Shown here: one piece after another, positions 24,001 through 30,000 of the stretch | Layout: the number at the start of each line of letters is the position of its first letter | Numbering within the stretch: position 1 is the stretch's first letter | IMG/VR virus record: IMGVR_UViG_2925908680_000007 | Location: 3,851 to 67,850 of that record | DNA length: 64,000 bases | From: a virus | Lineage: Duplodnaviria > Heunggongvirae > Uroviricota > Caudoviricetes | Direction: 5' to 3' (one strand) | Position numbers: made by a program

Positions 24001-27000
24001 CTGTCCGTATACTATTTAACGAAGATACATAACTTTGTTGAGTCGAAAAGTCTATCGTAAACTCCTGGGAATAGGATACCGAAGAAAAACCCAGTAACAG
24101 ACACAGTATCCACTTTAACAATATACACTTCATATACATATATTCCTTTTAGTTAAGGTAATCAGTACCAGACCCGGCGCAGATACAAAAAAGCCCGCAG
24201 AAGCGAGCCAGGGAAAATAAGTGTGGCGCGTTGTACTGGATTCGAACCAGTGACCGATTGCTTAGAAGGCAATTGCTCTGTCCGACTGAGCTAACAACGC
24301 ATGATGCAGATAATGGACCGCCATCCAGGACTCGAACCCCGCACCAACAACCCTGTTATCGTGTCGTCTGCTCTTCCTGATGAGCTAATGGCGGTATGTT
24401 ATGGTGGCCCTTGCTGGATTTGAACCAGCGACCTGGCGATTATGAGTCGCTCGCTCTCACCACTTAGCTAAAGGGCCGGGCGCAGGATAATAACGGTACG
24501 TAACTAATTCTGCAATATCATCCGTTCTGACTGACTAAATCCTGAACTTCCCTCACCGTCTGCTCAAAACGCCCGGTCTCCAGCTCAACGCCAATTGCAC
24601 GACGTCCCAGCGCCATCGCTGCTTTGACCGTCGAACCCGACCCCATGAAAAAATCTGCAACCAGATCTCCCGGACGACTGCTGGTGGTAATTATCTGACG
24701 CAACATCTCCGCCGGTTTTTCACAGGGATGTTTGCCGAGGTAATACTGTACAGGCTTATACATCCAGACATCCGTATACGGAACAGCAGCCGATACAGAA
24801 AAATAACGCCGCAGTGATTTGTATTCCTCCAGCAGGCTGGCATATTGCCGGTTCAGTTCACTGTATGTGCTGACCAGCTGGTGGTGTGGCTTTTCCAGTT
24901 CCCCGCGCTGATGTTTTTCTGCTGCAGCACGCGCAAACAACGCCTGCAATTTGTTGTAATCACCCTCGTTCGGCAACTGCCACTGACTTGTACCAAACCA
25001 GTGTGACGCCATGTTTTTCTTTCCGGTCGCTTCCGCTATCTGTTTCGATGTTACCCCAAGTGAATCACGCGCATCACGAAAGTAAGAAATCAGCGGGGCC
25101 ATGACGTGCTGTTTAAGCTCGCGCCCCTTTGCCGCATAGCCGTCATGTTTGGGCTGATATGGCCCCTGATAATGTTCGGCAAACAGAATGCGCTCTGTTG
25201 CCGGGAAATACGCCCGCAGGCTTTCCTTGTTGCAGCCATTCCAGCGTCCGGACGGCTTCGCCCAGATAATATGGTTCAGCACATTAAAGCGTTTACGCAT
25301 CATGATTTCGATATCAGACGCCAGGCGATGACCACAGAACAGGTAAAGACTTCCGGTGGGCTTTAATACACGCCAGAATTGTGCCAGACACTGGTCCAGC
25401 CATTTCAGGTAATCATTGTCGCCCTTCCACTGGTTATCCCAGCCCTCGGGCTTCACTTTAAAGTATGGCGGGTCTGTGACTATCAGATCGACAGAGTTTT
25501 CCGGTAAGGTCTGGATAAATTCCAGGCAATCAGCGTTGATTAACTCGCAACTGGATATTTTTACAGTATTAGCCATAGATCAATAAGCACTTCTCTGATA
25601 GGCTCATACCGCTTTTGCGCAAAGCAGATGGGCCTGAGGTTTGCTTGTGACCCCAACGCATGAGCAGATGGCTGGCAGGTGCCGCTAACACCCACTAGCC
25701 GCCCATTACCACAAATAAAAAAGCCTTCACTGCGGAAGGCGTCTGTAACAACCGAACTGATAATCTGCCAGACCCGCCATAACAAGCTGAGTCAGTATTA
25801 ACTGGCAGCGTTCGCGTGAAAGGTAAGTATTCTGCGCAATTTCCCCGACGGTCGCCGGTTCGGTGACGCTTAATTCATTAAACACCACTCTGGCGGTTTC
25901 GGTCATATCCTGCTGTTTTAGCATGTCTTTTCCCTTTTCCGGTTAACGTGACATACCAATAACTCTTGTCGAAAAAGCCAGCAAGCTGAAAGACCAGTAT
26001 TCGCAACCACCAGCGCGTTTAACGTCCCGTGCCGCTTTCCGGGCACAAAAAAAACCGCTCAGCGTGGGTTTAAGCTGTGTGGCAAAGTAACCACTCTTAA
26101 CACATTACAATAACTTTTGCGTACGCGTTAGCTCTTTTGTATATTTAACTTTTCTCTAATTCTAAAGGTAAAAGGTAACGACTAGTGAAAGCGAACGACT
26201 ACCTGTTTGGTCTTCAGGCAAGAAACATCTCTTTCAGGCTTCTTCAAGGCGAATTAAAGTATTTTAATATGAAGTCAGCTAGGGGGTGGACAGAGTTGCT
26301 ATCTGATTATGCAAGTAATAATGAAAAGGATATAATAAATAATCTCAAGGAGATTTACCTCAGCCAATTGAATTACAGCAATCGGGCCGTATTTTTTGCT
26401 CAACTGAATAATATCACTGACGCAATCCTCTTGAAAAAAACCTTGTTAAATCTGATTAACAGCAACGATAAAGATTATCAAGAATACATTGCCACCTACC
26501 CATTGCCAATAGATAGCGCAACACATAAAAAAGTCAAAAAATTAAGACCAGTCTGCATATCCCACTCTCAACATGGTAACTCGATCACTATTACAACAAC
26601 TTATCTTCGTCCATTCAAAGAAAGAAGTGCAATTGAAACAAATACACTAAGCCCAGCAACACAAAAAGAACTCAATTGTTTTGATGAAATAATTGGAATA
26701 AAAGATAGATACATCCAATGTTTTGACACAATTACTTTTAACTATGTTTCCGGCGAAATAACATTTGAAATCGACATGTGTACAAATCTTAACCATAATG
26801 AATTGGAGCGCGCATCAACAAGATATCGTAGAATATTAATGTACCTTTTCCATAAAGAGAATTCATATCACGTCGCCTTCATTAGAAAAAATATATTTAC
26901 TGCTATCGATAAACTTTACAAATCTGCCGATGGTACCATTTTAAAACTTGGGCATGCCACAGGAACAGGCTCAGTAAAAGAAGAAAAAATGAGAAAGAGA

Positions 27001-30000
27001 AAAGATGATTTAAGGAAGGAAAAATATCATGCCGCAGGCTTAGCGGCAATTGGAGGAAAAACTAATAACTTTAGTATTTCTAAACAATGGAATGGAGCAC
27101 ACAATAACATTTTAACAATGCATGTACCCGGACATTTTTCTTTAATTTCATCCTCGCTACCATTTATAAATCATGTTATAATCGAAGGGTGTGTTTGTAA
27201 ATCAGATTATGAGTTATTGATGTCAAAGGTTTTCTAAATGAATAAGCAGGAAATGAAAGATATCATACAACATTCTTTTGCTACCGACAGCAAAGTTGGT
27301 TTTGCATGTATGAATATTTATCATTACCTGCTTAATGAAGATCTGGATAATTTAAAATATATAACATTCAATAACTTGCAAAAAGTCAGTAATGTTGATC
27401 AAAGTATCCTTTACGAGGCAATTACTTATCTATCTGGAGAAAAAGCACCAATATTATCAATCGGATACGAATATATTGATGGTGATGACATTTTTGAAAT
27501 CTCTCAAGATGAGTTAAGCAAAATATATTCAGAAGGAACATTTTATTTCGATGGCAAACCAGTCCTCAATTGGCAGTCGAAAGTTTACATTTACTTTTAT
27601 GCATCAGAGTTCTGGAAAGGCCTAGAATGATGGATAATCAGAATAATTTTACGTTAGAATCGCTGAAGTTCGCAGCGTCATTCGATGAGAGCGCAGCACG
27701 CCTTTATCGAAGAATTACATGCAATTCATACGATAAATTTATTGAAATGTTTTATATTGACTTAGAAAAAACAATCAGATTGATTGAAAAAAATGCAAGC
27801 TTAATGCAAAACGATGGAGAAGACCGTTTATCTATAGAAATAATTAATATACTAATTGGCTTCGGATATGATTCTGGTCATGATAATTATATAAATGGGC
27901 ACTCAGACATTGTTGTAAGTTTCAAAAACTACACATGGATTGGAGAGGCTAAAATTCATAGCTCATACGACTATTTAATGGAAGGATTCCATCAATTATG
28001 CTCTCGTTACTCCACAGGAAGTGAAGATGATTGTCAAGGAGGATTAATAATTTATGTGAAAAGCAACAATGCATTAGATGTCGTAGAGAAATGGAAAAAA
28101 ACATTAACCTCTAAAAAAGATGACTTTGAAGATTTTTATTTATCCGATTGCAAAACAAGAGAAAAGTTGAGCTTTTACTCTAGCCACAAACACCCTAAAT
28201 CTGGATTACCATACAAAGTAAGACATTTCGCTGTAATATTGGGATTTGCACCTAAAGACAAAAGTGCGAGAACAGCAAAGTCCAGAAAATAATAAGTTTT
28301 ATTATCTGGACCAAGGCTGTTTTTATCTATTTAGAATACACATAATACCATCAATAAATCCAAGTGCAGTTTGCAACTCCTTTCTAATAGTTCCATCCGA
28401 GCATTTCCGCTTCTTTGCGATTGTACGGAGTGAAATCCCGATAACAAAGTGAGCAATGATCAGCTCATATTCTTCTGGTTTATATTTCCGCAACCGGGCC
28501 ACACATCCATCAATCATAATTCCTTCATCATCATCGCACTGGAGACGTGACTTTTTACCGTGTGGTAGAAGCCCCTTGAAACCAGCCGCTATCGGCTGCC
28601 AGTCGACACCACTATTTTCTGCTGCAGCCCAAGCCCCCCAACGATCTAAAACTTCGTACATATCACGCATCAGCGCAGTACCTCCTGCACCAGTTTTTCA
28701 AACTTTCCAACTTTGGTTTCCAGCTCCGCCACACAATCCACCAGCTCATCCACTGCTTTTTGTGCGCGATGTTTCGCCTGCATCAGTTCCCTGAGCGCTG
28801 GTACCATATCCCGACGAATGGCATCTTTTGTTACACCTGTTTTTTCCAGTTGTTCCGCCTGCCGCAACATTTCCTGTGCCTGTTTACGTAATTGCTCAGG
28901 GGTAAAAGTCATTGTCTGGTTGTTCAAAAGAAACGCTCCATCTTACTGCTGTCAGTTCGTTTGTTGCTGTATCTGCGCGGCTGGGGTTGCTGCATTGGGG
29001 CGGAAAGAATCTGTGCGCTTTCCTGATCCACAGGCAGAAAATGTCCGTTATAAAAACGCCGGTAAATCGTCCCCAGAGAACCGTTACGTTGTTTCGTGAT
29101 ATTGATTTCTGCGATGCCCCTGGCCTGCGTATCCGGGTTGTACACTTCATCCCTGTAAAGCATCAGAATGATGTCAGCATCCGCCTCTATTTCTCCGGAA
29201 TTTTTCAGGTCTGAGTTCATGGGGCGTTTATTGGGTCTGGACTCCACACCACGGGAAAGCTGGCTCAGCGCAATCAACGGAAAACCACCGGATTTTGCCA
29301 GGCCTTTAAGCCCCTTTGAGATTTCACCAACGGCAAGGTCATGACGCCCCGTGGTTCGGGTTTTTATCAGCCCGAGATAATCAACCACCACCAGCGCCGT
29401 TTCCGGATGTTTAATCAGGTGGTGTTTCGTTGTTGCGCATATCTCGTCAATGCTCAGGTTCGCCTGGTCCACCATCCAGATATTGCGCCCGGTCATCCGC
29501 CCCACCCCTTGAGAGAAACGTGCCCAGTCTTCGTCTTCAAAGTGAGTGACAGATTTCAGGCGTGATACCGGCATTCCTCCAGCCGCAGATACCATGCGTT
29601 CACCAATCTGGATGTTCGCCATTTCCATTGTGAACAGAAGAACACCATGCCCCTGCTCAGTCACCTTGTCGATGATATCCAGCGCCAGTTCGGTTTTGCC
29701 CATTGACGGACGAGCCGCAATAAATACCAGGTCGCCGGGCTCCATGCCGCCTGTTTTTGCGTCCAGTTCATCAATACCGGTCATCAACGTCCTGGATTTC
29801 TCCAGCCCCTGATTCCGGCATTCAACACGCTCAACCACCTCCGGAAGCACATCATCAATATGTACCGGCTGAATAATGCCCTTTTCCGTCGACAATGAGG
29901 CCATCATGTTCTGCGCATCCTTCAGGGCATCTTCAGCTGCTTCACAGGTATGCGCATCACGTAATTTCTGCAGCGCCTCATTCAGTGTTTTTTCTGCATC

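Follow-up and report, generated by a model that had tools for sequence, protein, structure and literature searches.

A candidate sensor-adaptor-nuclease defence cassette between Q and the late-operon leader of an Stx2e prophage

The recombination-associated protein RdgC modulates RecA. RexA, RdgC, IML3 and CHL4 form a group of dimeric DNA-binding proteins (PMC11077077), and the first protein of the cassette described here has a predicted fold that was tentatively placed in this group. The cassette, consisting of genes A, B and C, is located at 26185-28292 on the plus strand of the window (the whole 64,000-nucleotide stretch of DNA that was analysed), inside an Stx2e prophage of a pig E. coli. 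It runs antisense to the prophage and occupies the site between the antiterminator gene Q and the late-operon leader. No description of this triad was found in the literature searched by accessions, by PHROG ids and for RdgC-like or RexA proteins combined with nucleases in defence, and the triad is missing from the supplement of the 'modularity' preprint. The analysis presented below points to a real and uncharacterised candidate for a sensor-adaptor-nuclease defence system. The features of the locus are as follows.

24518-25576, minus strand: methylase, a conserved backbone gene that is present also in cassette-free phages.
25727-25924, minus strand: small ORF, a flanking phage gene.
25925-26131, minus strand: shared late-operon leader, which related Stx phages likewise have downstream of their Q; left flank of the slot, outside the cassette.
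26132-26184, plus strand: cassette-specific upstream region (5' UTR) that starts from the left cargo breakpoint; a possible -10 element TATATT and Shine-Dalgarno sequence AAGG were noted on direct reading of the sequence.
26185-27237, plus strand: gene A, GTG start, 350 aa (WP_000646552.1); putative DNA-binding or sensor subunit.
27238-27630, plus strand: gene B, 130 aa (WP_001041173.1); a small protein of acidic character that may dock the nuclease in a proposed role as adaptor or regulator.
27627-28292, plus strand: gene C, 221 aa from ATG (WP_000969103.1); PD-(D/E)xK DNase-like protein, putative effector.
28323-28670, minus strand: antiterminator Q-family gene by annotation, 115 aa, convergent with C across a 30-bp gap; right flank of the slot.

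A sequence-only reading of this DNA had described three translationally coupled, AT-rich ORFs of 350, 130 and 221 aa on the plus strand, opposite to every flanking phage gene, and these points were all confirmed together with the coordinates. At the A/B junction (TTCTAAATGAAT), the TAA stop of A is followed immediately by the ATG of B, while B and C overlap by ATGA (GAATGATGG). The GC content is 0.335 for the cassette against 0.492 (about 49%) for the flanks, and each of the flanking phage genes, which further include a helicase, tRNAs and stx2eAB, is on the minus strand. The identical three genes are present in the PGAP annotation of E. coli cq9, the source genome. For gene C the ATG was taken as the start; a mechanical ORF list would lengthen it to a TTG at 27570. 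The chance of a stop-free run of 350, 221 and 130 codons at 33.5% GC is 2e-12, 4e-8 and 5e-5, respectively, and therefore A, C and B are not chance products; conserved homologues were besides found for all three. The promoter within 26132-26184 is putative; consensus scans for promoters and terminators around the cassette stayed at background level, with no strong site in this region. The Rfam scan detected tRNAs only.

The borders of the cassette were determined by alignment with related prophages. In many cassette-free Stx and lambdoid prophages the Q-proximal leader shows 81-89% identity to the leader at 25925-26131. Homology with p4A and Stx2_EH2201 stops after ...TTTTGCGTACGCGTTA, at about 26131, and on the right side homology to cassette-free Q alleles is lost at about 28345. 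The cassette is rare in E. coli (23/5,426 complete genomes), and in sister prophages whose Q is 91-94% identical the Q slot contains different cargo or none. The block is thus variable cargo, in agreement with the earlier reading of it as cargo of the moron type. The cargo of the sister prophages includes DUF262+HEPN, ParB/Srx and methyltransferases; the variable Q slot thus holds further defence-like cargo. Prophages of both the Stx1a (O145:H28) and the Stx2e type contain the cassette, which directly adjoins Q and the toxin operon in them. In 13 viral contigs Q lies 14-49 bp past C, and Q and C co-diverge. Q is the long-term linkage partner of the triad, which has kept to a single Q type through long divergence, and the cassette is an old companion of this Q type, not a recent arrival in this phage.

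The nuclease core proposed earlier for the third protein was upheld with respect to both fold and catalytic residues. C contains the motif GHSDIVVSF...WIGEAKI, with D94, E107 and K109, and its core has the alpha-beta-beta-beta-alpha-beta restriction-endonuclease-like fold of the PD-(D/E)xK superfamily, carrying the catalytic D...(D/E)-x-K on consecutive strands and the acid of the upstream helix. Six residues, E65, D66, D94, E107, K109 and Q123, are invariant across 31 sequences down to 30% identity, and are kept also in versions fused to NACHT proteins. C is a predicted DNase of the BamHI-like PD-(D/E)xK type with an intact and invariant active site. Against PADLOC-DB v2.0.0, the C protein of the window hit the candidate PDC-S54 alone (E 0.009); the C-terminal domain of PDC-S54 was matched by 10 of the 31 C homologues, with a best E of 7e-8.

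For A, the monomer model gave RdgC as the best structural match, at 8% identity, and a putative RdgC/IML3/CHL4-type (RexA-like) fold is assigned on this model. The probability obtained by hhalign was 0.1% both for A2 against lambda RexA and for the A family against E. coli RdgC, RdgC chains were absent at E<=10 from the A2 profile search of PDB, and A and its family gave zero Pfam or PADLOC matches, RexA models included. Since hhalign gave no sequence relation, membership of A in the RexA or RdgC (PF04381) sequence families, for which a Pfam match is likewise missing, was rejected. The A family includes at least 636 clusters at 50% identity, ranging over Proteobacteria, Cyanobacteria, phages and satellites. 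A conserved polar motif, GHATGTxSxKxExMR...DLRxExxH, is peculiar to A; the conserved polar cluster, to which T259, K265, R270, R277 and H282 belong, could represent an enzymatic or ligand-binding site instead of a DNA-binding surface.

B matched phrog_11490 and is acidic, with pI of 4.4-5.4 in 8/8 loci examined. Its homologues, taken from ORFs neighbouring the related loci, are 17-41% identical across loci; by word-indexed homology search, B gave matches in E. coli only. In Table S10 of DefensePredictor, an independent prediction by machine learning, B is listed as 'Predicted novel defense gene' with log-odds of 6.28, exceeding the stringent cutoff of 4, while its match in PADLOC-DB v2.0.0 was CARF3 alone (E 0.007). 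B looks like an adaptor-like domain. The two partners of the nuclease, previously regarded as unknown, are thus partly resolved, A by its RdgC/RexA-type fold and B by its adaptor-like character, and still no named family was assigned to the three proteins or their whole families by Pfam, NCBIfam and PADLOC scans. No significant match to the models of any validated anti-phage system was obtained for A, B or C in PADLOC-DB v2.0.0, and sequence and profile searches of PDB yielded nothing meaningful. Domain scans showed no MTase domain in the three proteins, and they are devoid of transmembrane segments as judged from the maximum Kyte-Doolittle 19-residue windows of 1.43 (A), 0.80 (B) and 0.61 (C).

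The triad was complete in 98 of 112 related loci from Proteobacteria, Cyanobacteria and phages, in line with the earlier view of a nuclease and two partners as a single module, and the gene order, sizes and translational coupling are kept from E. coli to Cyanobacteria. It is mostly cargo of mobile islands or prophages. Its sites include the Q slots of prophages, islands with an integrase and a satellite-like element, and in some loci it adjoins MmeI-type RM (twice), DISARM-like genes or PIN. Among the 131 nearest-neighbour ORFs covered by an unbiased census of 34 genomes, integrases came top (6), clear defence genes were few at about 6, and housekeeping genes were many. The enrichment in defence islands is therefore only moderate, and the claim of a 'dense defence island' was toned down. 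The components also occur as parts of larger proteins. In 6 cyanobacterial genomes, NACHT+HEAT STAND NTPases end in the C domain, and residues 1-34 of C are missing from these fusions. A B-like domain forms the end of a Type I HsdR within a full hsdM-hsdS-hsdR operon and the end of a complete Type ISP enzyme, in each case followed by a stand-alone C with 4 nt overlap; these two fusions, found in two loci only, of Rhizobium and Sphingopyxis, have moderate E-values of 7e-5 and 5e-7. Such modularity is typical of immune effectors. The initial suggestion of a defence or exclusion module is supported computationally by these NACHT/STAND and Type I/ISP links and by the DefensePredictor score.

We consider it rather probable that the cassette is a three-component defence system against phages and mobile DNA, carried as prophage cargo (moron) in the Q-leader slot. 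The three proteins would then form a complex, in which A, as a dimer of the RdgC/RexA/IML3-CHL4 fold, may serve as a nucleotide-independent sensor or DNA-binding subunit that detects either a nucleoprotein structure of the phage or foreign DNA as it enters or replicates. The small acidic B would serve as adaptor, docking C onto its sensing partner and probably restraining it, and C, the BamHI-like PD-(D/E)xK DNase, would be the effector. A signal from A, passed through B, would license or assemble C for DNA cleavage, which could strike the phage DNA itself or, with an abortive result, all DNA of the cell. A more specific picture, proposed here only tentatively, takes the triad as an analogue of Rex exclusion armed with a nuclease: a dimer of the RdgC/RexA fold would sense a DNA structure or a nucleoprotein intermediate without NTP, the acidic dock B would license the DNase, B would be a portable connector also to Type I and ISP enzymes, and the NLR-like proteins of cyanobacteria would have the nuclease fused directly. 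RM systems would in that case possess accessory or guard nucleases of a class not recognised before. Given its antisense orientation in the interval from Q to the stx late operon, the cassette might also be shut down by convergent transcription once the prophage is induced, and immunity would then be tied to the lysogenic state.

A guard or retaliation mode, resembling PrrC or abortive infection of the TA type, is rather unlikely. In this mode C would be a latent toxic DNase held inactive by an antitoxin-like B, the guardee would be A or, in the B-fused variants, the restriction enzyme, and attack or titration of the guardee by a phage factor would free C and kill the cell. The NACHT-HEAT fusions employ the nuclease without B, so that B is not an obligatory antidote. 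This mode is a sub-variant of defence and not a separate function. It is far less probable that the triad is an addiction module stabilising the mobile element with no anti-phage role. It does often adjoin integrases, resolvases and Mob genes inside prophages and satellites, and a small acidic protein overlapping a nuclease by ATGA is a suggestive layout; yet three genes with a large conserved 350-aa partner are unusual for a simple TA system, the nuclease domain has been recruited by NACHT/STAND proteins and restriction enzymes, both dedicated to immunity, and the score of B in DefensePredictor is high. Equally little weight is given to a module serving the phage itself, with an RdgC/RexA-like binder and a nuclease taking part in recombination of the prophage, in the restart of replication or in controlling lysis versus lysogeny, as might be thought from the structural match of A to RdgC, from the long linkage to one Q type, and from the action of RexA on the bistable switch of lambda independently of exclusion (PMC11077077). 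A lambda Red-like gam/bet/exo module, prompted by the gene sizes, was rejected as C is restriction-enzyme-like and not Exo/RecE, A is unlike annealases, and the surroundings of the triad do not correspond to recombination regions of phages.

If the cassette is indeed a three-component defence system, a widespread system with an RdgC/RexA-fold sensor would be added to those described, and what Rex-type sensors recognise, a question long unsolved, could be approached in a second, tractable case. With the B domain, a new adaptor would be defined that couples one nuclease to DNA-sensing machines as different as RdgC-like proteins and the enzymes of Type I and Type ISP. The slot from Q to the late leader would be a hotspot of defence cargo. 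As the cassette stands beside Q and the toxin operon in Stx1a and Stx2e prophages, it may also shape superinfection and phage-therapy susceptibility of STEC.

Several known systems come close to the triad. The ring-forming RdgC, at 8% identity to A and with no profile-level similarity, is encoded by a housekeeping gene that stands alone on the chromosome. A, by contrast, is invariably located on mobile DNA in one operon with B and C, and has the polar motif GHATGTxSxKxExMR...DLRxExxH as its own. C shares with BamHI/BglII-type Type II enzymes and McrC the PD-(D/E)xK core and the catalytic acid and lysine on equivalent elements, but identity is about 10%, and C additionally has a helical region at its N-terminus and a conserved, basic tail at its C-terminus. 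Unlike Type II, I and III RM systems and McrBC, the triad has neither a cognate methyltransferase nor a McrB-like GTPase. PDC-S54 is a single predicted protein of 410 aa and not a three-gene architecture; the DefensePredictor cluster entry for B is likewise a prediction that does not cover this architecture. The Type I HsdR and Type ISP variants with a B-like end followed by C resemble PrrC-EcoprrI in having a nuclease attached to a restriction enzyme, but PrrC, an anticodon RNase that carries an ABC-ATPase domain, is unrelated to C, and the triad contains no RM component. Lambda RexAB would be similar in being prophage cargo with expression expected in the lysogen and in combining a sensor with a separate effector, neither having an NTPase; a polytopic membrane effector such as RexB is missing from the triad. 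Compared with STAND/NLR-like systems (Avs, bNACHT), the triad lacks an NTPase and sensing would fall to A and B, but its nuclease is the terminal effector of the NACHT+HEAT proteins in six cyanobacterial genomes, and this location suggests a shared effector logic, namely activation by partner-driven assembly.

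The window belongs to the chromosome of E. coli cq9, from pig faeces in China, and matches NZ_CP031546.1 at 100% identity. It spans an Stx2e prophage, whose genes all lie on the minus strand in the order replication genes, replicative helicase, small ORF, Q, small ORF, DNA methylase, tRNAs and stx2eAB. Between Q and the small ORF at 25727-25924, three plus-strand ORFs, herein A, B and C, form the cassette under study.

Features of the cassette and its flanks (window coordinates)
25727-25924, minus strand: 65-aa ORF WP_000917767.1, just downstream of the late leader
26185-27237, plus strand: A, 350 aa, GTG start
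27238-27630, plus strand: B, 130 aa
27627-28292, plus strand: C, 221 aa
28323-28670, minus strand: antiterminator Q-family gene, right flank, convergent with C

Reading of the ORFs and of their junctions (TAA directly followed by ATG for A/B, an ATGA overlap for B/C) gave exactly the layout described in the sequence-only reading, that is, coupled plus-strand ORFs of 350, 130 and 221 aa. The cassette was also AT-rich and antisense to the flanking phage genes, as claimed, with a GC content of 0.335 versus 0.492 in the flanks. The chance of open frames at the cassette composition was 2e-12 for A, 4e-8 for C and 5e-5 for B; these frame lengths at that GC content, together with the conserved homologues of all three proteins, indicate that the ORFs are very unlikely to be chance products.

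The p4A prophage has an identical copy of WP_000917767.1, and Stx2a phages carry it too; it represents the conserved first gene of the late transcript. Inside the shared late-operon leader, a GC-rich hairpin (GTGCC...GGCAC) followed by A8 was located at 26024-26052, and p4A and Stx2_EH2201 retain variants of it; on neither strand is it oriented like a canonical intrinsic terminator, and it could conceivably belong to the qut/tR' region. At 28282-28312, an AT-rich imperfect inverted repeat (TCCAGAAAATAATAAG / TTTTATTATCTGGA) lies across the C stop codon and extends into the 30-bp gap that separates C from the convergent Q; it might act as a weak bidirectional terminator, and the terminator scan made no call there. 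Between the tRNAs at 24224-24300 and 24402-24477, PGAP placed a third one, 'tRNA-OTHER', at 24314-24394. ARAGORN and Rfam found no tRNA in this segment, supporting only tRNA-Arg(TCT) and a CAT-anticodon tRNA. Stx2a phages have a second Arg tRNA, of which the segment is probably a degenerate copy. A sub-threshold Rfam match to 'Plastid-ycf2 5'UTR' at 24404-24477 (+), opposite the tRNA, was rejected as an artefact of tRNA-like structure.

A, B and C matched no Pfam or NCBIfam family and no validated PADLOC model, and PDB sequence and profile searches returned nothing; each protein was assigned to a PHROG of the function-unknown class. The C-terminal domain of the PADLOC candidate PDC-S54 was matched by 10 of 31 C homologues. 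B is fast-evolving (17-41% identity between loci) and acidic in each locus examined (pI 4.4-5.4). No description of the triad or its accessions was found in the literature searched. B (WP_001041173.1) is listed, with a mean log-odds of 6.28 (stringent cutoff, 4), among the 1,041 E. coli pangenome clusters predicted by DefensePredictor to be novel defence proteins (Science 2026, PMC13092281, Table S10); neither HHblits nor Foldseek connects it with known defence proteins. The cassette accessions do not appear in its tables of tested systems (PMC13092281), and the entry is an independent prediction, not a validation.

Each context sampled from distant homologues of C or A, including a Siccibacter prophage, Serratia, Lysobacter, metagenomic islands and a satellite-like element, carried all three genes in unchanged order, with gaps of 0-13 nt or short overlaps between them; an apparent middle-gene exception in one locus was only a mis-called gene. 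A motif-seeded scan yielded 49 viral contigs and 75 species-representative genomes from Gamma-, Beta- and Alphaproteobacteria, many Cyanobacteria and one Bacteroidota, and, of the 112 loci with enough sequence upstream of C, 98 had A as well as B there in HMM searches. On one metagenome contig (L010, 444-11619), the triad lies between the terminase and primase genes of a small integrative element, which looks like a capsid-forming phage satellite (integrase, AlpA, primase-polymerase, capsid protein, protease, portal, small terminase subunit). The triad was AT-richer than its surroundings in seven of eight loci examined, and an H-NS-family gene is located directly downstream of the Lysobacter triad (L007, 6834-7328); together these hint at xenogeneic silencing.

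Hand-sampled contexts contained two MmeI-type RM enzymes, DISARM-like genes and a PIN protein. The signal was weaker when the nearest ORFs (131 in 34 genomes) were counted in an unbiased census: tyrosine integrases ranked first (6), followed by resolvases, MobA and IstB; defence genes were few (Methylase_S twice, PIN twice, N6_Mtase, DarT-associated NADAR) and many neighbours were housekeeping singletons. The triad is mobile-island cargo, and dense defence-island enrichment around it is only moderate.

Domains of C and B were also found within other proteins. Six cyanobacterial genomes encode 995-1204-aa proteins that have a NACHT NTPase and HEAT repeats and end in the C domain (from around residue 35). 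In a Sphingopyxis MAG, the HsdR-like Type I subunit of a full hsdM-hsdS-hsdR operon ends in a B-like domain (E 7e-5), followed by stand-alone C, and a complete Type ISP enzyme (Mrr nuclease, helicase, coupler, MTase, TRD) in a Rhizobium genome is extended at its C-terminus by a B-like domain (E 5e-7), with C again coming next.

Variant architectures (coordinates within each compared locus)
L081 6938-10552, L091 7568-10555, L093 7004-10045, L096 6944-10537; also L084, L085: NACHT, HEAT/PBS-lyase repeats and C-type PD-(D/E)xK nuclease
L116 6327-9830: Type I HsdR with B-like tail, Sphingopyxis MAG; C at 9827-10462
L120 4557-9848: Type ISP enzyme with B-like tail, Rhizobium sp. RM; C at 9845-10477

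Behind these B-tailed restriction enzymes, C would act as an attached accessory nuclease. This exchange of domains with dedicated immune proteins argues most strongly for C being an immune effector and for B being its connector to a sensing partner; A would then be one of several interchangeable partners.

Among complete E. coli genomes, only 23 of 5,426 had the cassette; it is also present in seven Stx1a phages of O145:H28, and always with the same Q. Alignment with related prophages indicated that it is variable: Q alleles of 91-94% identity exist without it, with homology breaking at ~28345 and, on the left, at ~26131, 53 bp before the A start codon. The Stx2_EH2201 slot is empty, and the p4A backbone is near-identical to the window prophage with different slot content.

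Contents of the slot in other prophages (coordinates within each compared locus)
E. coli p4A, L015 2033-4891: C5-methyltransferase, antisense DUF262 and HEPN-like nuclease pair
E. coli 2015C-3107, L014 2584-4888: Dam-like methylase, antisense ParB/Srx protein, TerB pseudogene
Klebsiella phage P7641, L016 5345-7706: two antisense unknown ORFs, 405 and 383 aa

These differing contents mark the slot as a variable cargo hotspot, and suggest a general defence-cargo hotspot between Q and the late leader in this lambdoid phage group. In 13 viral contigs, however, C is followed at 14-49 bp by this Q type in convergent orientation, and the two genes have diverged together (C from 100 to 37% identity, Q from 99 to 54%), indicating that the triad is an old companion of this Q module rather than a recent insertion. 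The proposal of moron-type cargo is supported by the variable slot, the sparse occurrence and the other contents in sister prophages.

As our best estimate, the triad would be a sensor-adaptor-effector defence system. A, with a predicted RdgC/RexA-type fold, would be NTP-independent and recognise foreign DNA or a phage nucleoprotein structure; B would serve as an acidic dock linking A with C and probably restraining the nuclease; and C, the putative effector, would then cleave DNA. The NACHT fusions lack residues 1-34 of C, which are therefore a candidate B-binding segment. As the triad contains no methyltransferase, self/non-self discrimination would have to depend on a phage factor or on the structure, ends or modification of the DNA. 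The cassette runs antisense and converges on Q, which speculatively suggests expression in the lysogen, with possible silencing by read-through on induction; consensus scans around the cassette were uninformative. In a closely related alternative, a PrrC-like guard logic, B would mask a latent toxic nuclease. A pure addiction module is less likely, as is a phage-serving recombination or switch function. The defence or exclusion role first proposed is supported computationally by the conserved triad (98/112), the fusions with immune proteins and DefensePredictor.

These observations altogether identify the cassette as a real and widespread candidate defence system. The cyanobacterial NACHT-HEAT-C proteins have a STAND/NLR-like architecture, with the C-type nuclease in the effector place. 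The candidate system itself would belong to nuclease-based prophage or MGE defence, and would combine an unusual partner of predicted RdgC/RexA-type fold with a portable adaptor domain.
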